The position numbers and the translations under genes are program-made. This document shows, piece by piece, positions 7,704-17,973 of a DNA stretch of 64,000 bases (its first letter is position 1; the number at the start of each line of letters is the position of its first letter). A model generated the notes under the pieces. That model saw only the letters and a program-made list of their open reading frames with translations. It was not told where the DNA came from and did no database searches. Origin of the DNA: Escherichia phage ime; sequence record MN850576.1; one strand, 5' to 3'.

Positions 7704-7713
7704 AGCTGTCTCC

Positions 7714-9696
7714 TTATTTGGTGTTATTCTTTGCGTCGATCAGTTCACGGTATTCAATCATAGCAGGAGTGTCCCAATATTTCAAGCCCACATGCTTCAA
7801 AAGTGGATATTTCTTTTCCAATCTTGCAATATAGGCCTTCCCGCACTTGACTCGGTTGGCGATTAAGATTTTGGCACGATGATTTAGCTCACTGTGCTTC
7901 CACGCGGTGTTACCTTCCCACTTGTGGAAATGTGGCCGATAATTTCCAAAATCTTGCATGGGGATAATTTTCCCTAATTGTCTATACAGGCTGTCATATG
8001 AAGTTTCATTTGCTGCGCGAGTCAGTAAGAATTTCCAGGCGTCCTCTTTCAACAAATGTTCCACATTTTTCTCTGTAACATACTGGCAATCAGGATCAGT
8101 CCAAAGCAGACGAGATTCTGATACCAGGTACAGATCTTCCCCTTCAGGAATCTGGAGTGCCGCACGCACACGGTCATAATTTTGCTGGTAGATGTTACTT
8201 AGCTGTCCCAGCCAACAACTTCCACGTTGGATATCACCCTCATAAGGAATGCAGTGCTTAATCTTCTTGAACTCTGCCTTAGTAATACGTTCACGACGGA
8301 AGTAACCATCCTTCTCAAGCTTTTTAACCCAATAACCTGGCTCGTAATGAGTTTTTGTTTCACCTTTCTTCGCAGGTCGGCGAGGGAGCTCTGATAACAA
8401 TTTGACAGTATCTGCAAAGAACGGATGGTGTGCCGCCTCTTTAAACTCTTTCACCAGATCCGTGTTCCGGCAATAGAAAACGTTGCGTCCGGTGATTTCG
8501 CTTAAGTAGTTACACTTATTTCGGTTATATTTACCATCTCCGTCGTTAAATACAAGGTATACACCTCGTAAGAACTCCGACTTTCCGTAACGAGCATAGC
8601 CTATGCGGTCTTTATTTAAGCCGCCAGCGAAAATTTCACAATCGCCTAAGTCGCCAAGCCCTGTTTCTTCCCAACGGTTCCACATAAAGTTTTTGCCGAA
8701 GATGTGTCCGAACACTCCACTATTCTTCATCATTTCACGTGCTTCTGCGGAGGTTTTTGCCGTCTCCAGTTCTGCAATAACTTCTGCCCCGCGAAGACGT
8801 ATACCTTCTTTGACAAAGGCCTCCAGGCGATCCTGGAATCCACCGTCGTCATGGCCCTCTATGGTCCATTCACGCCCAGGGTTAATATTGCAATCCCCAA
8901 TAGGAATTTCCACGCAGATTGCAGGGTAATCGGTCAATGTCTCCAGGAACTTGGAGCGGTAAGGTTGGTGACCCATCACAACACGGCTCTCATCAGAACT
9001 GGTATAACCTTTCAGGATGGTCATTTTCCAGCCATCCTTCTCGTAATGATACTGTGCCTCAACCTTGTCACCTTCTAACATCTTACTGGTCATAGGATCG
9101 GTGACGATGAACGGAAACTTCGCATAGCGTAAGCACGATGCAATAGCAGTGCGATATTTCAGGACATGCTCTTTCTTAACATGGAACTGAACTTTTACCC
9201 CGTTGTGCTCTTCAGTCTTCCGCTCACGGATCTTGGTAACGTTTGGGATACCCTGATCCAAGAACAATAGATATGTGCTTTCAACACCATTGTGCACACT
9301 GATAACATCGAAAGTGTCCACCATACTGAACGGAGCCTTTGAACCAACACCTTTATTACCTACCAGAGCGTTGCTGTTGCGCTTGGTTGACTCCCCGAGA
9401 TTCATGAAAGTGTTGCGGACCATCTCTTCTGACATGCCCAATCCAACGTCCTGCACAAAGAAGTATGGTTCAAGGTCTGTAGGAGAGTGAATGATGATCG
9501 GTACATCACCCCGTCCAGACTCAACATGGGAGTCCACAGCATTGAAGATTGGTTCACGGCAGCTTGCCAGCACCTTATCTTCGTAAATCCCTTTAATGAT
9601 TAGCCCAAAAGTCTCTTTGTTCAGAGAAATTGAGCCCCTGGTGACCTCCATATTTCCGGTCAGCACTGCTTTAGTTTCATTACTGTTTACAATCAT
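7714..9696 (-). CDS. rIIA: rIIA-like protein with N-terminal GHKL/HSP90-like ATPase domain
   Basis: N-box-like FNAVDSH and G-loop GNKGVGSKAPFS (compare T4 rIIA GGFGLGSKSPFS, recalled from memory); 660 aa. Confidence 0.65.
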   Translation of the reverse strand: MIVNSNETKAVLTGNMEVTRGSISLNKETFGLIIKGIYEDKVLASCREPIFNAVDSHVESGRGDVPIIIHSPTDLEPYFFVQDVGLGMSEEMVRNTFMNLGESTKRNSNALVGNKGVGSKAPFSMVDTFDVISVHNGVESTYLLFLDQGIPNVTKIRERKTEEHNGVKVQFHVKKEHVLKYRTAIASCLRYAKFPFIVTDPMTSKMLEGDKVEAQYHYEKDGWKMTILKGYTSSDESRVVMGHQPYRSKFLETLTDYPAICVEIPIGDCNINPGREWTIEGHDDGGFQDRLEAFVKEGIRLRGAEVIAELETAKTSAEAREMMKNSGVFGHIFGKNFMWNRWEETGLGDLGDCEIFAGGLNKDRIGYARYGKSEFLRGVYLVFNDGDGKYNRNKCNYLSEITGRNVFYCRNTDLVKEFKEAAHHPFFADTVKLLSELPRRPAKKGETKTHYEPGYWVKKLEKDGYFRRERITKAEFKKIKHCIPYEGDIQRGSCWLGQLSNIYQQNYDRVRAALQIPEGEDLYLVSESRLLWTDPDCQYVTEKNVEHLLKEDAWKFLLTRAANETSYDSLYRQLGKIIPMQDFGNYRPHFHKWEGNTAWKHSELNHRAKILIANRVKCGKAYIARLEKKYPLLKHVGLKYWDTPAMIEYRELIDAKNNTK

Positions 9697-10193
9697 TTAT
9701 TGCGCTCCTTGTAGTAGATATGGCTCCCGAATTGAGCTGTCCTCTGCATCTTTTTTGCCCATTTCGGTCGTACTTTGGTTGTATGGTAGTGTGTTGCTCC
9801 ACCTGTTATGTCCATAGCCATGTATGCAACATGGTTGTTATTATAGACCTTTAGAAGCATCTTTGCAAGACTTTTAGCGTGATCCCATGAATCTTTTTCT
9901 GTCACCTTAAAAGTTTTGCCGTGGTTTGTCCACGAAAACTGGTTAGGTTGGTAGACAATCTTTCTTATAGTGTCTGGGTATTTAGGGTGGGATTTCCTGT
10001 TTAGTGTGGCAAACCCAGATGCCAGCATACCCATCGTGCCATCTCCTCTAGCTTCCCTGTAGATATTGCATGCCAGAATGTTTTCCTTAGTATCTGATGG
10101 CTTGCAAGTATGATATACTTTTTGTTTTTGTGCTGCAACAACAGGCAGCGATAAAAGTGCGCTCAAAATAATAGCAAAGATCTTAATTTTCAC
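9693..10193 (-). CDS. Secreted cell-wall hydrolase, SleB/Hydrolase_2-like
   Basis: N-terminal signal peptide (MKIKIFAIILSALLSLPVVAAQ); motifs NIYREARGDG and QPNQFSW. Confidence 0.55.
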   Translation of the reverse strand: MKIKIFAIILSALLSLPVVAAQKQKVYHTCKPSDTKENILACNIYREARGDGTMGMLASGFATLNRKSHPKYPDTIRKIVYQPNQFSWTNHGKTFKVTEKDSWDHAKSLAKMLLKVYNNNHVAYMAMDITGGATHYHTTKVRPKWAKKMQRTAQFGSHIYYKERNK

Positions 10194-10202
10194 AATGACT
10201 CC

Positions 10203-10230
10203 AAATAGAAAATCCCCGCCGAAGCGGGGG
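10203..10230 (-). terminator. Rho-independent terminator
   Basis: Minus-strand hairpin CCCCGC-UUCG-GCGGGG followed by AUUUUCUAUUU. Confidence 0.6.
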
Positions 10231-10242
10231 AGGTCTTAGAAA

Positions 10243-10671
10243 TTAATCGTAGTGTGCCAAAATCTCTCCATCGTTGCAAGTTCCCTCTACAAAGTTATGA
10301 AGATTCATGCACTCATCTTGATAGAAGAATTTACCGCTTTTCAGCCGTAGGCCAAACAACTCCGCATCTCCACGATGGCAAGCCTCTACAAGTTCATAGA
10401 TTTCATACGGCAACTCTCCGTCGTCATGGAAGAATCCAGCCTTATCGTTGACATAAATGAAGAAATAATCACTGCTATCGCAAGCGTCCAATATTTTAAA
10501 CCAGACTTCATCTACATCTTTTTCTCGGATATCGATCACGCAAGTGGAGCTGCATTCGTACTCCTTCTCCGGCTCCTCGGTCAATACCACCAGGTAGTTT
10601 CCCCGCTTACCTACTTTAGCCATACAACCCCCCTTAAGCTTTAGCCAAAATGGCGCTAAACTCTTCACCAA
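10243..10671 (-). CDS. Hypothetical protein (likely start 10623)
   Basis: Called start overlaps the AAA+ gene by 38 nt; internal ATG at 10623 (MAKVGK...) has a strong SD (AAGGGGGG) and is the more plausible start. Confidence 0.5.
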   Translation of the reverse strand: MVKSLAPFWLKLKGGCMAKVGKRGNYLVVLTEEPEKEYECSSTCVIDIREKDVDEVWFKILDACDSSDYFFIYVNDKAGFFHDDGELPYEIYELVEACHRGDAELFGLRLKSGKFFYQDECMNLHNFVEGTCNDGEILAHYD

Positions 10672-11818
10672 ACTCTTTTACAATCTTCATCAGGTTTGGG
10701 TATGCTTTGATCAGCTGAGCAACAATCTTGTCACGCCCTTTACCGATAAGCAAGGCATTTCCTAAGGCATTAGGTTTCATCATCGCCATAAAGACTGAGA
10801 ATACAAAATCTCGGTTCTCGTCCTTGAAGTTTTCCCAAAGGAAATCGAGGAAGTTTGCCACGCAGCTGACAAGATCTTCGTCTGAGATACTTGCATTTTC
10901 CATCATATTGCGAATAGCGATACAACCTTCAGATCCAAGAATCCACAAAATGTCTGGCTGCTTAGGACCTACGTATTCTTTGCAGCCACCTGCCATAATC
11001 CGACCGATTTCCGGTAAATTACGTTTCTTGGTGTGGTAAGTCCAGATCTCTACCGCTGCAGTGTGACCAATAGCACCTTGTAGAAGAACACGGGCCATAG
11101 CGTCAGAAATAATACCGCTGTCAAAATCGTGCAAGATGTCAGATGCAGCAACCCAAGATCGTGGTGTGGCAAAAGATGGACAATTAATCTCAGCCATAGC
11201 CTCATAATTATCAATAGCTGATGGAACTCTTTTCAGATACCCAATTACAGAGGAGTGAACCCCGTTGAGGAATGCGTAGTCCTCAATAAACACCTCTGCA
11301 TTGCTTGTAACCTCTACAATGATAAAACGGTTAGCCAGAGGGGCTTCGAGCGCCGAAAGAACCGCACCATCTGTAGAACGGTTACCCGCAGCCACAAAAA
11401 CAGAACCCTTAGGGAATGCATAGGTGCCGCACTTGTGGTCAAGCATAATTTGCATTGCAACCTTTTGCAGGTAGTTATCTGCATGAGTGAGCTCATCCAG
11501 AAAGATAATTCCGCTCCAGTCAGGATCCGCAGGCCAAAATTCTGGAATTGCAAACACTGTACGTGTAGTTCCATCCGCTTCTACAGGGATAGGTAGCCCA
11601 GATAAGTCGGCAGGATCTTTATCTGACAGTCGCACGTCAACAAGGTTGTCATCTCGCTCACCGAACATATTATCAGCGATCTGCTTCATCACCTGGCTTT
11701 TACCCACACCCATTGGTCCCAAAATTAGGACAGATCGGCTATGACGTTGGGCAAACTGAATAATAGCTGGCAACTCACGGACAGTGATTTGACCACTTTC
11801 GAATACGTTTCTTGACAT
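10634..11818 (-). CDS. MoxR-type AAA+ ATPase (CobS/NorQ-like)
   Basis: Walker A LILGPMGVGKSQ, Walker B GIIFLDELTHA; 394 aa. Confidence 0.75.
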   Translation of the reverse strand: MSRNVFESGQITVRELPAIIQFAQRHSRSVLILGPMGVGKSQVMKQIADNMFGERDDNLVDVRLSDKDPADLSGLPIPVEADGTTRTVFAIPEFWPADPDWSGIIFLDELTHADNYLQKVAMQIMLDHKCGTYAFPKGSVFVAAGNRSTDGAVLSALEAPLANRFIIVEVTSNAEVFIEDYAFLNGVHSSVIGYLKRVPSAIDNYEAMAEINCPSFATPRSWVAASDILHDFDSGIISDAMARVLLQGAIGHTAAVEIWTYHTKKRNLPEIGRIMAGGCKEYVGPKQPDILWILGSEGCIAIRNMMENASISDEDLVSCVANFLDFLWENFKDENRDFVFSVFMAMMKPNALGNALLIGKGRDKIVAQLIKAYPNLMKIVKEFGEEFSAILAKA

Positions 11819-12087
11819 TAGTAAAAGTCCTCTACTTGTGTGTAAGTGTTTTCAAAGTTTTCCAAAACAGATATCACATCGAATCTGTCAATATCATACG
11901 TGACTCTCCAGTTGTACGCAACCCTTTCTGCTGTTGCCTCTTCTGGCGCTAGTCGTCTGCTGGCATAAAAGAGTGTTGGAGTACACTTTCTTGCTTGCCC
12001 TCTAACTTTCCCATAATAATATCTGTGAATATCTTTGTCAAAATTTAACTCTTTTTCTGCACGAAGTTCATATTGCTGGTATAACAT
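11818..12087 (-). CDS. Hypothetical protein
   Basis: 89-aa ORF, start-stop coupled to the AAA+ gene. Confidence 0.45.
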   Translation of the reverse strand: MLYQQYELRAEKELNFDKDIHRYYYGKVRGQARKCTPTLFYASRRLAPEEATAERVAYNWRVTYDIDRFDVISVLENFENTYTQVEDFY

Positions 12088-12131
12088 CTCTACTACTCCT
12101 TAAGCAGCATCCTTGCCGCCATTCCTGCCCA

Positions 12132-12512
12132 CTAAAATGCAGTCCGAATCCAGACAAGGTTCTTATCTGCCCAATCATAGAGGCAAGTCATTGCACTATT
12201 GAATTGCTCACACGGAGGATAATCTTCTTCCATCTGGCGCATAGCAGAGCCTTGTGGGTAAAGCTCCCGTGCTGCAAACCACGCGTCGTAGTCATCAACG
12301 GTGTCGAAGTAGTATACAACATCCTCTAACTCAGGATCGAACTTTGAACTATCAGGATCCAGTTGTTCAGGGAACTTGGAGCGTAACTTGCCAGCCACAA
12401 TACTTGCCAACTCGCTAACATGCTTATTGTCCCACTCCACTAGCTTCCCGTCTTCAGTGATGCGTCCTAACCACTGATCATGAAGGTCAACTGTTGTCTT
12501 CCACTGAGCCAT
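12132..12512 (-). CDS. Hypothetical protein
   Basis: 126-aa ORF in a same-strand array. Confidence 0.5.
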   Translation of the reverse strand: MAQWKTTVDLHDQWLGRITEDGKLVEWDNKHVSELASIVAGKLRSKFPEQLDPDSSKFDPELEDVVYYFDTVDDYDAWFAARELYPQGSAMRQMEEDYPPCEQFNSAMTCLYDWADKNLVWIRTAF

Positions 12513-12514
12513 TA

Positions 12515-12775
12515 TCAGTCCACCTCTTCTTCTCGTTGTAGTTCAAGATACCCGTAGGTCTGGACATCTTGAAGGGTGTGGAACTCCCCCCCCTCTGCCG
12601 CTAAGGCACGAACAACTTGGCACAAAACCTTATGAGGAACTTCATCCAAACCTAGATTCAGTGCAGGAAACACCTTATCTAAGTCAACAAAATAAACGAA
12701 CTGTAGCTCACCAGCTTCAAAAGGTGTATCTTCAATAAACATCTTCTCGGCATTAGTCAAGATCTGCACTTTCAT
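12515..12775 (-). CDS. Hypothetical protein
   Basis: 86-aa ORF in a same-strand array. Confidence 0.45.
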   Translation of the reverse strand: MKVQILTNAEKMFIEDTPFEAGELQFVYFVDLDKVFPALNLGLDEVPHKVLCQVVRALAAEGGEFHTLQDVQTYGYLELQREEEVD

Positions 12776-13152
12776 TATTCTACCTCCTCTTCTTTTTCTT
12801 CGGCATTAGTTTCATGGCTACCCCACTCGGGAGTTTCCACCTCGATAGTAAACTCACGCACTACACGGTAATTGCCCATGAAGCGCTCTACTTCGTCAAG
12901 GCTTATGGAGAGGCCATTGGCAACCAGGTCTGCAGCACCCTCTTCTACCAGGTAGTCCAGATTGGCTTCCAGAGCCTCAGGTTCAAACCCTGTCAATGCA
13001 ATCAGATAACCTTCCCCTTCATCAGGGAGGACAATACAGCCCAATTGATTTTCTTTAAAAAGGCAGTGACCATCATTATTGATTGGGTGTTCATTGCAGT
13101 AAATAGCTGCACGATAAGTAACTTTAGACATCGGTAAGGTCTCCTTAGGCAA
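12775..13152 (-). CDS. Hypothetical protein (likely start 13131, MSKVTYRA...)
   Basis: In-frame ATG at 13131-13129 preceded by AAGGAG; this initiation region is part of a 29-nt inverted repeat shared with 14970-14998. Confidence 0.5.
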   Translation of the reverse strand: MPKETLPMSKVTYRAAIYCNEHPINNDGHCLFKENQLGCIVLPDEGEGYLIALTGFEPEALEANLDYLVEEGAADLVANGLSISLDEVERFMGNYRVVREFTIEVETPEWGSHETNAEEKEEEVE

Positions 13153-13423
13153 TTGTCGTTTTACATTCTTGAAATTTTAACACAAGACGGTGATTGTGTC
13201 TAGTGTCTAAAAAGATTTTTTCAACCATCAGGCACACGGTATAACCGTCAATCTTGTTGACAACAAAATCTCCAGGATGAGGGAGGATGTCTCCCGGATT
13301 GGGGAAACATAGTCCACTCAGAAAGGCATCGTCAGTGGTGGACTTAATAGATTTCCACACACTGTCTGCCTGAACATGTTCACCGACGTAATATACATTA
13401 CCACATGCCTTCATCATAGTCAA
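13145..13423 (-). CDS. Hypothetical protein
   Basis: 92-aa ORF in a same-strand array. Confidence 0.45.
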   Translation of the reverse strand: MTMMKACGNVYYVGEHVQADSVWKSIKSTTDDAFLSGLCFPNPGDILPHPGDFVVNKIDGYTVCLMVEKIFLDTRHNHRLVLKFQECKTTIA

Positions 13424-14319
13424 ACCCTCGCATAAATTAAACTTGTATCAGTATACTTCTTTAATGGGTAAATATCCTGTCCATAGATGCAATCATTAAA
13501 CACCTCATCTACCCAAAGGCTACACTTATATCCCATCATTTCTAAAACACCCATCTCTTCTTCGGTAAACTTATCACCGCTCTTGCAAGATGTCAATACC
13601 TCATTCTGAACTCTTGCTACCTCGAAGCGGTTATTGGCAATATCGCTATTGGCGATCAAATACTCACCTAGAGGGTGTGCGGCATTAAAGATGCACAGTG
13701 GACGGCTGACGTAATAGTCTCCAGGTGTATAAAAATTGTTGAGGTCTTTCACTAGAACATTCTTATCAGTCACTTCATTTATAACATCATGCATATCGCA
13801 CATCTTTATATGTTTGAGGATTCCATCCCCCATCACAAAATAAAAACTTGCTGAGACACTTTCGGCATAGATCTTACTAGATCCGTTGTAGTTGTATTTT
13901 ACTCGGATGCTAACGGGGGTTTTTCCTGTCGCGTTAGCCATCATCCAAAGAAATGGCAGCTCATACTTCTCCTCTGAGGAAACAAAAGGTGAGGTAGCCA
14001 GAGATCGAAAACCTCCAGAGAAGTTGAAAGTTACAGAACCGCTCCGGCGGTATGATACCGCGTATTCTACTTTTATATCGACATACCCATTGGAATAGGT
14101 GTGTCCTTCATTATCTAAATATGTCCACTTATCAGACCCAGATACCAATCTACGCTCAATAACCTTCATCACTATAGGAATTAATGGGTTGGTACAAACC
14201 GCTTTTGAAGTAGCTTTATCATCTAAAGCCTCGTAAATTGCAGAAAGGATGTCCCCAGCTGAAAGATTGGTTGTTATGTCCTGTTTCCACCGCGTACTAA
14301 AACTGTTAAGATTTGCCAT
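13420..14319 (-). CDS. Hypothetical protein
   Basis: 299-aa ORF, first gene of the minus-strand early block; promoter-like element upstream. Confidence 0.55.
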   Translation of the reverse strand: MANLNSFSTRWKQDITTNLSAGDILSAIYEALDDKATSKAVCTNPLIPIVMKVIERRLVSGSDKWTYLDNEGHTYSNGYVDIKVEYAVSYRRSGSVTFNFSGGFRSLATSPFVSSEEKYELPFLWMMANATGKTPVSIRVKYNYNGSSKIYAESVSASFYFVMGDGILKHIKMCDMHDVINEVTDKNVLVKDLNNFYTPGDYYVSRPLCIFNAAHPLGEYLIANSDIANNRFEVARVQNEVLTSCKSGDKFTEEEMGVLEMMGYKCSLWVDEVFNDCIYGQDIYPLKKYTDTSLIYARV

Positions 14320-14359
14320 AAGTAAGTGCTCCTATGTTAGTTTTCTTTCGAATGGGTGC

Positions 14360-14388
14360 ACTATATTGTGGAGTTAGAGTAAAGTCAA
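14360..14388 (-). promoter_or_regulatory. Sigma70-like promoter (TTGACT-N17-TATAGT) for the minus-strand early block
   Basis: Plus-strand agtcaa at 14383-14388 and actata at 14360-14365 (reverse complement TTGACT / TATAGT) with 17-nt spacer, in the divergent intergenic region. Confidence 0.5.
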
Positions 14389-14395
14389 CACGTTT

Positions 14396-15439
14396 TTGAT
14401 GTTGACATCTGTTGAGACAATTGATACGATTTCTTCACTTACAGAGCACGAGAGACGACTCATGAATCTTGAAAAATATTATACACCAGAAGAGTTAGAG
14501 CGCTTGCTCAAAAAATATAGACGCAAACAGAATAACGCACGGAAACGAGATATAGAGTTCGACCTGTCATGGGAAGAATACCTCCTATTTGGTAAAAAAC
14601 TTTTAGGAGATGGAGTATGCGACTATACCCTTATACCTTTTGACATGCACACAGATGAAAACGGGCTGGGGAATCCTTTCTACCCATCTCTGGAGCGGAT
14701 AGATGATGAAGGTCCTTATGCGGTTGATAACTGTTGTGTGGTGGGATTGAGATGCAACTCTCTAAAGGACTGTCTGGTAGATAAAAAGACTGCAGTCTTG
14801 ATTAAAGACGAAACTGATCGAAAAATTGTCCAGCAGATGATGCTCCACCTGAGCGAAGAGCGTATGGAGAAATTGAAAGGTGATTATACTTTTGAAGATT
14901 TCATCTTGCAATATGGAACGGAAGAGGATAAACTAGCACTCTTTGACGAAGAAGAGGAGGAAGATATGCTACCGATGTCTAAAGTTACTTATCGTGCACC
15001 CAAGAAGCACATTTCCGACATTGTAAACGAGCCTATCACAGAAGAGATTGAAGAAATGACGCAACAGGTGCATGAAGAGGAAAAAGAGACTCAGGAGGTC
15101 GAAGAGGAGCTTACAGAAGAGGTTCCTGCACTACCTGATGATGTTGAGATTGCCAAAGCTTACACTTTCTATTGTCAAACGTTCTACGATGTAGGTATGA
15201 AAGTTGATCTGTCGTTCAGCCAATTTAAGAGTTCGTATATTCGCAAATGCTGTGCTTTAACTGGTGAACGTCTTGGAGCTGGACTTAAACCCCTGTTGGT
15301 GACCGACTGGAATAAAGGTTTCACTAAAGGAAACTTTATGGTAGTATCTCCAATTATGGAGAAAGCTATGACAGATCTTATGAAGACCACCCGCATGACA
15401 ATGACCGAGTTGGCAGGTATTTTCAAACACGTTAAATAA
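14396..15439 (+). CDS. Composite ORF: HNH-like N-terminal region, acidic linker, C-terminal domain with internal SD+ATG
   Basis: MHTDENGLGN...SLERIDDEGPYAVDNCCVV resembles an HNH (His-Me finger) motif; EEEEED linker; in-frame internal ATG at 14975 preceded by GAGGAGG. Called ATG 14396 overlaps a TTGACA hexamer, so the true start is uncertain (alternative ATG 14462). Confidence 0.45.
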   Translation: MMLTSVETIDTISSLTEHERRLMNLEKYYTPEELERLLKKYRRKQNNARKRDIEFDLSWEEYLLFGKKLLGDGVCDYTLIPFDMHTDENGLGNPFYPSLERIDDEGPYAVDNCCVVGLRCNSLKDCLVDKKTAVLIKDETDRKIVQQMMLHLSEERMEKLKGDYTFEDFILQYGTEEDKLALFDEEEEEDMLPMSKVTYRAPKKHISDIVNEPITEEIEEMTQQVHEEEKETQEVEEELTEEVPALPDDVEIAKAYTFYCQTFYDVGMKVDLSFSQFKSSYIRKCCALTGERLGAGLKPLLVTDWNKGFTKGNFMVVSPIMEKAMTDLMKTTRMTMTELAGIFKHVK

Positions 15440-15451
15440 TGACAGGGGCCA

Positions 15452-16933
15452 ATGGCCCCTTCTGGAGTTTTAATGGATAGTAGAAGTTCAGAAATCATTG
15501 CCTCGCAGAAAGATGATGCCCTGAGAATGTTGCAGGCTGCACGTATGTATCTCCTTGAAAAGCTGCCGTTTTATGGCACACTACTGTCAGGGTTGCAGTT
15601 CGTAGAAAACCACACATGGTGCTCCACCATGGCAACCGACCATAAACGCATCTATTACAGTCCTGAGTTCATTATGGGATTGGCTGATGAACGCAAGGCT
15701 ATTCTTAAGGCTTCTCTAACTGACGAGCAGTTTGAGATGGCTGAAGTTTTCTATTCCCCAAAATCTGTGAAAGAGGTGGCCTTCCTTCTGTCACATGAGG
15801 TGGGGCATATTATCTGTGATCACCTAGTCCGTGGTAAAAGCTTTGAGCCGGAACTGTTCAATATTGCTTGTGATCACGTTATCAACACAGGCCTTGTGGT
15901 TGACTTTAGCAAACCTCCTTGTGTTTTCTTCCCGAAGGGGAAAAGCACTACGTTCATGAAAGGTAAGCCTTTTGGCTTCTTAGCCAGCTGCTACTGCGAC
16001 ATGAAGTTTCATGGATGGATTGCTGAGAACGTTTATGCAGTTCTTGATAAGCAAAGAGATCAGAATAACGGTAAAAGTAAGAACGGTAAAGGTGAGAACT
16101 CTCAAAGTGATAAGCGACAAACCGATGATCACATGAGTGGGAACGGTGGCACCAGTGATAATCTTGGAAAGGCTATGAGGTATGATCAGCCACAACCTGT
16201 AATCAGCCAATCTGATAAAGATCAGGCCATGCAGGACTCTGGTGATATGCTGGAGGCAGCAATGCAAGCGTCCGGAGGCCGTTGCCCTGAGGCGGTGCGT
16301 GAGTTTGTCAAGAACAGAGGTAAGCCTGTAATCAACTATATAGACATCATTAAGCAACGTATGTTGTCTAAAAGAAAGGCCGAACTGACCTACAGAAAAC
16401 CTGGTCGCCGATCTGGGTCTTTGACCAGCACAATGCGAAAAGTTGGGGCTATAAACAAGAACCAGCACGTTATTGTTCCTGGTCGTAATCCGGAAAACAC
16501 TATAGATATTGTGGTGGCTTTAGACGTTTCTGGCTCGATCTCTCAAAGAACTTTAAAGAAAATGTTCAATGAAATCACCGGATTGTGCAATCTGTATAAA
16601 GAGTTTAAGGTTACAATGTTCTGTTGGTCAACTGAGGTTGGAGAGGTTAAAGTATACACTCGCGGCAACATAGACGAGATGGTCAACTATGAGGTCCACT
16701 CAACATGGGGCACAACAGCTGCTTGCGTGTTCGAGTATCTGGATGCCAACATACCTAATGCAAAAGATGTCATCGTCCTGACCGACCTATACTTTGAGCA
16801 TAACTTTGAACAAAAGGTTGTTGACAACAAGTGGAAAAAGTACGATACTCTATGGGTCCTCACTGAGGGGTATAATAAAAATTATATCCCGAGCTTTGGG
16901 AAAACTGTGGAATTAATCGAGTACGCTAAGTAA
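15452..16933 (+). CDS. vWA-domain protein with N-terminal HExxH metallopeptidase-like region
   Basis: HExxH motif LSHEVGHIICDH; MIDAS motif VVALDVSGSIS (DxSxS); 493 aa. Confidence 0.7.
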   Translation: MAPSGVLMDSRSSEIIASQKDDALRMLQAARMYLLEKLPFYGTLLSGLQFVENHTWCSTMATDHKRIYYSPEFIMGLADERKAILKASLTDEQFEMAEVFYSPKSVKEVAFLLSHEVGHIICDHLVRGKSFEPELFNIACDHVINTGLVVDFSKPPCVFFPKGKSTTFMKGKPFGFLASCYCDMKFHGWIAENVYAVLDKQRDQNNGKSKNGKGENSQSDKRQTDDHMSGNGGTSDNLGKAMRYDQPQPVISQSDKDQAMQDSGDMLEAAMQASGGRCPEAVREFVKNRGKPVINYIDIIKQRMLSKRKAELTYRKPGRRSGSLTSTMRKVGAINKNQHVIVPGRNPENTIDIVVALDVSGSISQRTLKKMFNEITGLCNLYKEFKVTMFCWSTEVGEVKVYTRGNIDEMVNYEVHSTWGTTAACVFEYLDANIPNAKDVIVLTDLYFEHNFEQKVVDNKWKKYDTLWVLTEGYNKNYIPSFGKTVELIEYAK

Positions 16934-16948
16934 GAGAGGAGGTTATTT

Positions 16949-17212
16949 ATGGCAACAGAGTTAAAATTTGCATCAAACCGTAAAACTAAGAAGTATCTGT
17001 CCTCAGTAGCTCCAGGCACTGTGGTGATGTTTGTTGATGAACTTGGGGATGTGAATACAGCACTTGTTGTAAAATCACATCCTGCAAACATATATGTTGG
17101 GGTATTTGACCTGTTCAGAAAGGTGTTTGTAGAACTGCCTCACAGTTTGGTTGTTACAGAAATGGATGCCTGCATAGAAATTCTTGGCGAAGTTATGGTG
17201 GAGGAACAATAA
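16949..17212 (+). CDS. Small paralog family protein, copy 1 (87 aa)
   Basis: Strong SD GAGAGGAGG; shares MAT...GTVV...VVK...FDL...LP...VTE-D...ILGE pattern with copies 2-4. Confidence 0.65.
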   Translation: MATELKFASNRKTKKYLSSVAPGTVVMFVDELGDVNTALVVKSHPANIYVGVFDLFRKVFVELPHSLVVTEMDACIEILGEVMVEEQ

Positions 17213-17475
17213 TGGCTACCAGCATTGTATTCAATTCTAAGGTGAAGAACAAAAAGCGTGCAGACAGTTTTCCGTGTGGGACCGTGGTAAGTTGCGACGG
17301 AGACGGCATTCAAAACATAGTTATGATTGTCAAAACAGGAGAACATTGTGTGTGGGGGTTCGATTTAGAAAATAATGAGTTGTACGATCTGCCGCCAAAC
17401 ATGAAAGTTACAGAGCTTGACACCAAAATTACCATCCTTGGAGAGACAAGCTATTCAAAAGAAGGAGGAGAATAA
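17212..17475 (+). CDS. Small paralog family protein, copy 2 (87 aa)
   Basis: Start overlaps copy-1 stop (TAATG); SD GGAGGA; clear alignment with copy 1. Confidence 0.65.
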   Translation: MATSIVFNSKVKNKKRADSFPCGTVVSCDGDGIQNIVMIVKTGEHCVWGFDLENNELYDLPPNMKVTELDTKITILGETSYSKEGGE

Positions 17476-17738
17476 TGACCACAAAAATCACTATCGCAGA
17501 ACCGAAAGCTAACACTCAGCCTATCGAAAAGTTTAAGTGCGGTGAGGTGGTAACATTCACACCAGATAATGAAGATGCTAAGATTTTCGCAATGGTCACA
17601 GCTGAGTGGATGTGTGACAACACCACACAGGTTCTGCGTTTTGACACCTATCTTACCGATGAAATCAGGAACGACAAGATTGTGACTGGTGTGGATACTG
17701 AGATTGTTTTCTACAAGAGCTTTTTAGAGGGTTTCTGA
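17475..17738 (+). CDS. Small paralog family protein, copy 3 (87 aa)
   Basis: Start overlaps copy-2 stop (TAATG); SD AAGGAGGAG; diverged but same pattern (CGEVV, DTEIV). Confidence 0.6.
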   Translation: MTTKITIAEPKANTQPIEKFKCGEVVTFTPDNEDAKIFAMVTAEWMCDNTTQVLRFDTYLTDEIRNDKIVTGVDTEIVFYKSFLEGF

Positions 17739-17739
17739 T

Positions 17740-17973
17740 ATGGCAAAAATTAGAAAATTATCTAGCAATCAGGTTGTGAAAGACTTCGAATCTGGAGAGA
17801 TTCTTTATGTTCGTGATGCAGATGACGAAGGTGAAGATCTCGTTATGTTGGTGGGGCACGCTGAGGACGGATGCATCCAAGCTGTTTTTCTTGAAACAGC
17901 TATGGTGCACTGGATAGAGCTGGACCTGAAAGCACGAAAACCTAAAGCAGAAATCCTGATTTACGAAGATTAA
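17740..17973 (+). CDS. Small paralog family protein, copy 4 (77 aa)
   Basis: Directly follows copy 3; weaker similarity (SGEILYV, VMLVGH). Confidence 0.5.
   Translation: MAKIRKLSSNQVVKDFESGEILYVRDADDEGEDLVMLVGHAEDGCIQAVFLETAMVHWIELDLKARKPKAEILIYED

Follow-up and report, generated by a model that had tools for sequence, protein, structure and literature searches.

The window analysed here, the whole stretch of 64,000 nucleotides, comes from a Vequintavirus (rV5-like) coliphage genome with 99.8% identity to phage Murica, and in it an ORF for a MoxR-type AAA+ ATPase and an ORF for a protein carrying a vWA domain and an HExxH motif lie on opposite strands with 3.6 kb between them. The locus raises the question of whether these two proteins are partners and, if so, how their genes came to be separated and what the pair might do. 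The first-pass annotation had placed the ATPase at 10634-11818 on the minus strand and the vWA ORF at 15452-16933 on the plus strand, and had read them as a split partnership. Both ORFs exist as described, and they are not chance ORFs since more than 100 rV5-like genomes conserve them; the partnership itself is supported by Pfam matches to DUF2201 and by homology to adjacent gene pairs elsewhere. The pair is in fact already known, being annotated in rV5 (2013), in Murica and in many relatives, and it corresponds to the core pair gp24/gp25 of phage N4; the combination of a peptidase-vWA protein with a MoxR ATPase has been known from jumbo phages since 2021, as set out by Iyer et al. (PMC7824862).

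The ATPase, which has carried the annotation 'MoxR ATPase' in rV5 since 2013, has the following features:

10634..11818, minus strand: MoxR-class AAA+ ATPase, rV5 gene 4, homologue of N4 gp24, 394 aa
11696..11719, minus strand: Walker A, GPMGVGKS, residues 34-41; G37, G39, K40 and S41 invariant in 42 sequences
11486..11503, minus strand: Walker B, FLDELT (D108, E109); L107, D108 and E109 invariant in 42 sequences
11324..11392, minus strand: AAGNRS (putative sensor-1 N146) to LANRF (putative arginine finger R164), roles assigned by position

Both Walker motifs conform to their consensus (GxxGxGK[ST], and hhhhDE in a Walker B region that reads IIFLDE), and residues A144, G145, N146, R147, N163 and R164 are likewise invariant in the 42 sequences; it is from their positions that N146 is putatively the sensor-1 residue and R164 putatively the arginine finger. 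The protein itself passes no Pfam gathering cut-off (AAA_5, PF07728, scores 16.7 bits against a cut-off of 22, and AAA 17.5 bits against 21.2), while relatives that share 31-34% identity with it score above threshold (43.9 bits for AAA_5 and 31.7 bits for AAA_3, PF07726), so that its membership of the MoxR class rests on transitive homology. Direct phmmer searches of PDB sequences returned only P-loop matches for the ATPase (Clp and p97) and nothing for the vWA protein, and for this reason profiles were needed to find structural relatives. The best match in the ATPase profile search was Midasin, and the structures nearest to the ATPase model are dynein, CbbQ, NorQ, a MoxR structure and Midasin; its closest solved relatives are therefore those (MoxR, dynein or midasin) by which a MoxR-class protein is recognised. 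Beta-hairpins at the helix-2 insert and before sensor-1 mark the AAA+ clade that contains MoxR, dynein, midasin and the chelatases. Both can be assigned here, solely from the secondary structure of the AF2 model: the helix-2 insert would be formed by strands 75-81 and 84-90, which come after beta2 and before Walker B, and a short hairpin at about 129-135, followed by strand 138-145 and then N146, would be the pre-sensor-1 hairpin.

The partner protein combines two domains whose principal residues map as follows:

15473..16933, plus strand: zincin metallopeptidase (DUF2201_N) fused to vWA (DUF2201), rV5 gene 12, homologue of N4 gp25, 486 aa
15794..15835, plus strand: zinc-binding and catalytic motif HEVGH (itself 15794-15808) with the downstream H124, HEVGHIICDHLVRG
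16523..16543, plus strand: MIDAS motif DVSGSIS (D358, S360, S362), invariant across the family alignment
16706-16717, plus strand: contains T421 of the MIDAS
16775-16792, plus strand: contains D445 of the MIDAS

The mechanically called ORF starts at 15452, within the loop of a hairpin (15444-15460, -14 kcal/mol), while the ATG at 15473 is preceded by GGAG and gives a length of 486 aa that agrees with the Murica annotation and with homologues; on these grounds the true start is likely to be 15473, and the earlier start needs correction even though the HEVGH and DVSGSIS motifs were rightly recognised. In N-to-C order the protein matches DUF2201_N (PF13203; 99.7 bits, cut-off 23.2) and DUF2201 (PF09967; 44.3 bits, cut-off 26.4), so that the motifs first recognised in the sequence are upheld by HMMs, directly for the vWA protein and, for the ATPase, only by way of homologues that pass AAA_3 and AAA_5. 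Its vWA fold has a complete MIDAS (DxSxS...T...D). Zinc peptidases (M48 and minigluzincin, best E 0.003) are the sole matches to a profile of the N-terminal domain, and all 45 family members compared share H115, E116, H119, H124 and D141; these conserved residues suggest that the gene 12 product would have zinc peptidase activity. The DUF2201 family is very large: at E<=1e-30 it yields 14,717 representatives of clusters formed at 50% identity, or about 15,000 clusters.

Homologues of the two genes are usually neighbours. Searches by tblastn with the vWA protein or the ATPase produced hits that include RaK2, phage G, Atu_ph07 and other jumbo phages, and in N4, RaK2 and Cronobacter phage CR9 the two genes share a strand, with that for the ATPase directly upstream. 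Among viral loci gathered with the ATPase alignment, this arrangement occurs in 68 of the 70 that hold both genes, the two exceptions being Vequintavirus-like, and on bacterial chromosomes the ATPase is directly upstream in 75/77 loci, the median gap being 77 nt; these counts should not be taken as independent events, because the 80 viral and 80 bacterial loci are each dominated by a single clade. They do answer, in its favour, the question of co-occurrence that the proposed partnership had raised. Sequence comparison indicates that both of our proteins are homologous to both members of such adjacent pairs, the identities being 34% (ATPase, E 6e-54) and 26% (vWA, E 4e-37) for environmental phages, 35% and 35% for CR9, and 31% (ATPase, E 7e-37) for bacterial chromosomes; the matches to N4 gp24 and gp25 have E values of 3e-28 and 2e-20. 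Taken with the domain matches, this supports a partnership between the ATPase and the vWA protein. The pair also recurs near genes for thymidylate synthase, dCTP deaminase, HD phosphohydrolase or thioredoxin.

Separation of the two genes is confined to the Vequintavirus/Mydovirus lineage, and the region between them is organised around a divergent promoter:

11818..14319, minus strand: six intervening genes (rV5 genes 5-10) that come before the ATPase in leftward transcription
14360..14430, both strands: back-to-back sigma-70-type promoters, both -35 boxes inside the palindrome 14384-14406
14388 to 14360, minus strand: leftward promoter, TTGACT-17-TATAGT
14402-14430, plus strand: rightward promoter, TTGACA-17-TACGAT with TG
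14462..15439, plus strand: rV5 gene 11, an Srd/'anti-sigma'-like gene that opens the rightward unit and precedes the vWA gene
15444..15460, plus strand: GC-rich hairpin (GGGGCCAATGGCCCC), -14 kcal/mol, in the gap that separates the Srd-like and vWA genes

The distance and the opposed orientation had been described correctly, but seven genes in total, not eight, occupy the interval: six on the minus strand, with products of 89, 126, 85, 118, 90 and 299 aa and matches only to PHROG families of unknown function, and a seventh on the plus strand. In CR9 the block that runs from the HD phosphohydrolase to the ATPase is read rightward from the promoter, whereas in Mydo it is read leftward, and from this difference in synteny we infer a single event; the split is best explained by one old inversion at the bidirectional early promoter, with a breakpoint that fell between the ATPase and vWA genes. 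An inversion at such a position means that both genes would still belong to sigma-70-type early units. Nothing supports a special functional meaning for the split, which is a peculiarity of one lineage and offers a clean example of an operon broken by inversion at a bidirectional promoter. The hairpin is a possible terminator or attenuator, and its counterpart in the Murica annotation is marked as a terminator.

The pair has likenesses to several known systems. N4 gp24 and gp25 (Schitoviridae) are homologous to both proteins, gp25 having the same DUF2201_N and DUF2201 domains (3e-87 and 1e-46), and they too are non-late genes with no assigned function. The N4 genes are adjacent and co-directional, however, whereas the rV5-lineage pair is divided by the inversion; the rV5-lineage vWA protein is also about 100 aa longer than gp25, with an insertion before the HExxH helix, and the C-terminal helical region of the ATPase is longer than that of gp24. 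The MoxR and metallopeptidase-vWA proteins of group 2.2 jumbo phages, as presented in the accessible part of Iyer et al. 2021 (PMC7824862), have the same architecture and are homologous; virion assembly is put forward there as a hypothesis, and neither rV5-like 137-kb phages nor an early context figures in that portion of the text. Among characterised pairs, CbbQ-CbbO (Rubisco activase) and NorQ-NorD (nitric oxide reductase maturation) differ in that CbbO and NorD are without a peptidase domain and in that their clients are defined metalloenzymes, unlike the still hypothetical client of the rV5 pair. Acidianus two-tailed virus also encodes a MoxR-vWA pair, p618 and p892 (cited in PMC7159879 and PMC7824862); by description, these archaeal proteins lack a peptidase domain and serve extracellular tail development.

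Two further families can be set aside. CobS/CobT, a common annotation in phages and one that the first-pass annotation had entertained, also pairs an AAA_5-type AAA+ protein with a vWA protein, but Pfam finds no CobS (CobS_N) or CobT family in either of our proteins, NCBIfam likewise finds none, and an HExxH peptidase is present instead; membership is rejected because those domains are absent. The MoxR-vWA ternary conflict systems (Kaur et al. 2020, PMC7159879) share the same core, sometimes with peptidase effector domains, and one of the ATPase's bacterial relatives matches bpMoxR, though below threshold. These are bacterial defence systems, however, while the rV5 pair consists of phage genes; the neighbours are without VMAP, iSTAND, FtsH or beta-propeller domains, and against PADLOC the vWA protein has no match and the ATPase only weak P-loop matches (best E 0.0028), none of them meaningful. 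A ternary defence system was rejected on this basis.

Our essential proposal is that the locus holds the rV5-lineage copy of a MoxR ATPase and peptidase-vWA machine, split by inversion, that would couple ATP-driven remodelling of a client protein to its cleavage, the client being more probably non-structural; we put the probability of this account as a whole at about 55%. On the model of CbbQ-CbbO, NorQ-NorD, RavA-ViaA and Midasin, a hexameric ring would be formed by the ATPase, the MIDAS site of the vWA domain would catch an acidic residue or peptide of the client, and ATP hydrolysis would remodel the client, which the fused peptidase could then cut. On a weaker footing, a host or non-structural phage protein seems a more likely client than a virion component, because the genes are early in rV5 or middle in N4 and their products are undetected in rV5 virions (mass spectrometry of virions gives no evidence for the products of genes 4 and 12). 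The rV5 late genes 27-66 lie outside the transcription units of genes 4 and 12, and in N4 the genes for gp24 and gp25 are middle genes, which also belong to the core set of N4-like phages. Narrower and distinctly more speculative is the idea that rV5-like, N4-like and jumbo phages share an early, ATP-driven, MIDAS-targeted zinc protease that cleaves one specific host protein, for example a defence, stress-response or nucleotide-metabolism factor; were it true, the pair would be a conserved protease of host takeover or counter-defence and not an assembly factor. The first-pass suggestions of host takeover, counter-defence and a proteolytic output thus stand as hypotheses.

The strongest case for a different role is that of a virion-assembly chaperone with a processing protease, in which the pair would fold or assemble parts of the tail or head while the peptidase trims structural proteins. 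This is the role proposed for the jumbo-phage pair by Iyer et al. 2021 (PMC7824862), from its likeness to p618/p892, and the archaeal virus is reported to need its MoxR-vWA pair for tail development (cited in PMC7159879 and in PMC7824862). Virion structural genes stand directly upstream of the pair in RaK2, and virion-protein genes lie near the gp24/gp25 homologues of N4-like roseophages. Yet the rV5-like genes belong to early units with sigma-70 promoters, and a long distance separates them from the late structural genes 27-66 with their T4-late-like motif, and the middle genes of N4 sit amid genes of nucleotide metabolism and replication. A separate candidate head-maturation protease occupies the canonical portal-to-capsid position, and the same operon is found on bacterial chromosomes without phage context; we therefore consider a role in assembly unlikely, though worth keeping in mind.

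An insertase or chelatase-like function, after the manner of CobS/CobT, BchI/BchD or NorQ/NorD, would have the pair mature a metalloenzyme, for instance in nucleotide metabolism, with the HExxH motif binding or transferring metal rather than cleaving peptides. Many characterised MoxR-vWA pairs do mature metalloenzymes, NorQ and NorD are among the structural matches, and the recurrent neighbours listed above would suit such a role, although that association may simply be inherited synteny. The absence of CobS and CobT Pfam domains, an N-terminal domain that matches zinc peptidases exclusively and the invariance of the catalytic Glu of HExxH make this reading improbable. The inversion itself might suggest that the two genes, on opposite strands, 3.6 kb apart and in separate transcription units, now act separately, their resemblance to a pair being historical. 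But both are kept together in every Vequintavirus-like genome examined, they have diverged in parallel (53% and 44% identity in Mydo, 35% and 35% in CR9), their catalytic and MIDAS residues are all intact and their units share the bidirectional promoter, and such independence is very hard to credit.

The proposed remodelling and cleavage machine belongs to a very large family which forms part of the core of several major phage groups and still lacks an experimentally defined function or substrate; our literature searches (including DUF2201, COG3864, rV5 MoxR and phage MoxR-vWA) found no functional study of any member. The tests that the CRISPRi-ART paper made in EdH4 and N4 did not take in these genes, but E. 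coli phages that carry the pair, such as the rV5-like EdH4 and N4, are tractable by that method and function is directly testable.

Two features of the locus invite misreading. Gene 11, described at first as a composite HNH-like ORF, is indeed present, but its HNH and Srd anti-sigma labels come from PHROG only (phrog_3118, 4592 and 1400) and no Pfam match was found at E<=10 for the product, whole or as two halves; the Mydo homologue is annotated as a putative anti-sigma factor. Its composite look is due to a 29-nt perfect inverted repeat held in common with the gene at 12775-13131. This repeat was rejected as the cause of the split, since it brackets only the promoter segment 13137-14969, with neither gene inside. 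The label 'HNH endonuclease' (phrog_1314) on the vWA protein is also rejected, because the peptidase and vWA domains account for the whole protein; it is a widely propagated mis-annotation, now in many GenBank records, that goes back to an old entry in which a roseophage ORF was called 'putative HNH endonuclease'.

The first-pass annotation had proposed a MoxR-vWA partnership between a MoxR-type AAA+ ATPase (10634-11818, minus strand, 394 aa, rV5 gene 4) and an HExxH peptidase-vWA fusion (15473-16933 from its probable start, plus strand, rV5 gene 12), which in Escherichia phage ime lie 3.6 kb apart on opposite strands. The observation was correct and the pairing inference right: in all the other lineages examined, homologues of the two are encoded side by side on the same strand, and, judged by sequence comparison, the evidence says that the two are indeed partners. 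The adjacent pair was found in the following lineages:

Large environmental phages: adjacent and co-directional
Cronobacter phage CR9, of the same subfamily: ATPase CR9_126, 66 nt upstream of vWA CR9_127
Phage N4: gp24 and gp25
Jumbo phage RaK2: the record says "similar to N4 Gp24 ATPase"
Sulfur-oxidising Gammaproteobacteria: on the chromosome

Viral linkage was sampled in 80 contigs fetched by an ATPase profile, 70 of which carry the vWA gene, while nine of the remaining ten end less than 200 nt past the ATPase; bacterial linkage was sampled in 80 loci fetched by a vWA profile, 77 of them with enough upstream sequence. In each sample a single clade predominates, and so the resulting counts, with the vWA gene directly downstream of the ATPase on the same strand in 68 of 70 viral contigs and the ATPase directly upstream of the vWA gene in 75 of 77 bacterial loci (median gap 77 nt), show operon structure and not many independent events. 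The only two viral exceptions are Vequintavirus-like loci, and in the remaining two bacterial loci the ATPase lies 2 kb upstream on the same strand. Among sequenced phages the two genes occur in the same groups (Vequintavirinae, N4-like Schitoviridae and jumbo phages), and they diverge in parallel, with ATPase and vWA identities of 53% and 44% for Proteus phage Mydo, 35% and 35% for CR9, 34% and 26% for environmental phages, and 27% and 22% for N4. Nucleotide-metabolism genes recur near the pair in other genomes: a thymidylate synthase gene accompanies it in N4, RaK2 and environmental phages, N4 also has dCTP deaminase, CR9 and Mydo have an HD phosphohydrolase, and bacteria have thioredoxin; this may reflect inherited synteny or be a functional hint.

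The separation of the pair is an ordinary inversion. Mydo (Mydovirus) has the divergent layout of the window and CR9 (Certrevirus) the adjacent one, in which an HD phosphohydrolase, three small genes, the ATPase and the vWA gene run rightward from a divergent promoter; in Mydo the block from HD phosphohydrolase (56% identity) to ATPase runs leftward from the promoter and the vWA gene remains on the right. Adjacency is ancestral, since it is shared by N4-like phages, jumbo phages and bacteria, and the simplest account of these gene orders is one inversion in an ancestor shared by Vequintavirus and Mydovirus; one breakpoint would lie between ATPase and vWA gene and the other at the promoter region. 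In the window each gene belongs to one of two units starting at back-to-back sigma-70-type promoters:

14388 to 14360, minus strand: leftward promoter, TTGACT-17-TATAGT
14402-14430, plus strand: rightward promoter, TTGACA-17-TACGAT, extended -10

The late genes of rV5 (27-66) form a different unit with a T4-late-like motif; as both genes of the pair are still in units served by the back-to-back promoters, the split has no obvious functional meaning. The -35 boxes are arms of a palindrome (14384-14406, GTCAACA...TGTTGAC, -8.6 kcal/mol as RNA), which could serve both promoters as the operator of a regulator. The best sigma-70 match of the region (TTGACA-17-TATTAT, 11/12, 12013-12041, minus strand) lies ~200 nt upstream of where the ATPase starts, inside the gene at 11818-12087, and could be the ATPase's own promoter or a chance match. 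Around the bidirectional promoter there is also a perfect 29-nt inverted repeat, TACCGATGTCTAAAGTTACTTATCGTGCA, at 13108-13136 and 14970-14998 (arms 1833 nt apart), kept in Escherichia phages Murica and rV5_ev146. Read on the minus strand, the repeat spans the start codon and first eight codons of the gene at 12775-13131 (MSKVTYRA...), and on the plus strand it falls within the Srd/HNH-like gene (rV5 gene 11, between promoter and vWA gene), following the acidic run EEEEEED. Outside the repeat, which could be a recombination scar or mark an invertible segment, the two proteins are unrelated.

Both open reading frames are present where they had been placed, and both named motifs were found, HEVGH at 15794-15808 and DVSGSIS at 16523-16543. 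The ATPase motifs are:

11719-11696, minus strand: Walker A, GPMGVGKS
11503-11486, minus strand: Walker B

The ATG at 15452, where the longest vWA reading frame begins, sits in the loop of a GC-rich hairpin (15444-15460, -14 kcal/mol) annotated as a terminator in Murica; the real start is probably ATG 15473, after GGAG, giving 486 aa as in homologues. Lying between the Srd-like and vWA genes, the hairpin may attenuate read-through. Seven small genes and an HNH-like reading frame had been counted between the pair, but the total is seven and not eight, of which six are minus-strand genes and one is a plus-strand gene. The latter, the "HNH-like" frame, has 14462 as its most likely start, since the rightward promoter falls inside the longer, TTG-initiated version; it has no Pfam match, even at E<=10, its sole hits being to PHROG families that bear the labels HNH endonuclease, Srd anti-sigma factor or sigma-70 decoy. 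Directly downstream of the vWA gene, four small genes follow in succession (16949-17973; 87, 87, 87 and 77 aa), the first two being clear paralogues (38-39% identity, E 2e-10) and the other two aligning weakly.

Alone, the ATPase falls below all Pfam cut-offs (AAA_5 16.7 bits vs 22), and phmmer against the PDB returned P-loop matches only. Homologues sharing 31-34% identity with it across ~85% of the length (E ~1e-44) carry AAA_3, AAA_5 and sometimes bpMoxR, a 42-homologue profile has Midasin as its best match (1.5e-9), and in the AF2 model (pLDDT 85) one beta-hairpin is inserted behind beta2 and a second, short one precedes the sensor-1 strand, both inserts being typical of the MoxR/dynein/midasin/chelatase clade. 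By homologues' domains, profile match and predicted structure, it belongs to the MoxR/AAA_5 class, and it looks active, since the alignment shows no variation in Walker A, Walker B, N146, R147, R164 or R220. The vWA protein exceeds Pfam cut-offs for both DUF2201_N ("putative metallopeptidase", 3e-28) and DUF2201 ("VWA-like", 2e-11). Across 45 family members, with identity down to 20%, the zinc site with its surroundings (H115, E116, H119, H124, A139, D141) and the complete MIDAS set (D358, S360, S362, G420, T421, D445) are invariant. The family is very large, with 14,717 representatives at 50% clustering (E<=1e-30), of which the best 150 listed are nearly all full-length. The protein matches PHROG family 1314 (7e-123), labelled 'HNH endonuclease', a name carried by many phage records of it and traced in the RaK2 record to a roseophage ORF that had long ago been annotated 'putative HNH endonuclease'; we rejected this identity, no HNH domain being present. 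Other records name homologues 'DNA repair ATPase' or 'anti-sigma factor'.

The real interest lies outside this finding, in the function and substrate of a very common phage and bacterial machine. We found no experimental study in the literature searched on the DUF2201 peptidase-vWA/MoxR family, and a CRISPRi-ART study on rV5-like EdH4 and N4 did not have the pair's genes among its targets. By analogy with the characterised MoxR-vWA systems CbbQ-CbbO, NorQ-NorD, RavA-ViaA and Midasin, the ATPase would assemble as a hexameric ring and the vWA MIDAS site would capture an acidic residue of a client protein, which ATP hydrolysis would remodel. The predicted HExxH peptidase domain is present here but absent from those four systems, and its invariance argues that the client may also be cut. 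A CobS/CobT-like reading, raised earlier, fell away, since the Pfam scan contained no CobS or CobT domains.

In their treatment of group 2.2 jumbo phages, Iyer et al. (2021, PMC7824862) describe MoxR with a vWA protein bearing an N-terminal metallopeptidase, exactly the make-up of the window pair, and propose a role in virion assembly with structural-protein processing. Virion genes near the pair in RaK2 and roseophages favour that role, but in rV5-like phages both genes are in early-type units, the products of rV5 genes 4 and 12 are absent from MS-detected virion proteins, and N4 gp24/gp25 are middle genes surrounded by genes of nucleotide metabolism and replication. Moreover, another protein, a candidate head-maturation protease, is encoded where such proteases usually lie, between portal and capsid, and the equivalent operon occurs in bacterial chromosomes without phage context. 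On this indirect evidence we rank assembly second to remodelling and cutting of a host or non-structural client, with metal insertion a third possibility. The candidate protease, 139 aa long, is encoded in Murica (KT001917, 55917-56336) in the interval that separates portal from scaffold/capsid; the ORF matches PHROG 'head maturation protease' (7e-14) and is annotated only as hypothetical protein or 'possible portal'; it falls just past the right end of the window, which ends inside Murica gene 60.

Megablast of 10000-17500 matched 121 phage records, and since the best, Murica and rV5_ev146, are 99.8% identical over the full length, the phage can be assigned by sequence to Vequintavirus, the rV5-like myoviruses. 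Murica position 1 corresponds to window position 7714; between 17500 and 61655 the offset grows from 7713 to 8655, which implies ~0.9 kb of additional sequence somewhere in the late region of the window phage, and identity falls to 96.4% at the far right. The pair is already annotated, widely distributed and previously described. Murica labels the genes "ATPase" and "metallopeptidase, contains von Willebrand factor domain", rV5_ev146, LL12 and others call the first "MoxR ATPase", and in the original rV5 paper the name "MoxR - ATPase" already stands for gene 4, gene 12 being entered there as conserved hypothetical, with the domain PF13203 DUF2201_N. The published rV5 table lists genes 12 and 13 as ORFs of 441 and 81 aa where the window, Murica and other relatives have a single 486-aa ORF, probably reflecting a frameshift or sequencing error in the reference. 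Sixteen 'Campylobacter phage' records (host Campylobacter jejuni) also match 10000-17500 of this E. coli rV5-like sequence, C12 among the matches listed being 99.5% identical over the full 7.5 kb, which suggests mislabelled or contaminated submissions.
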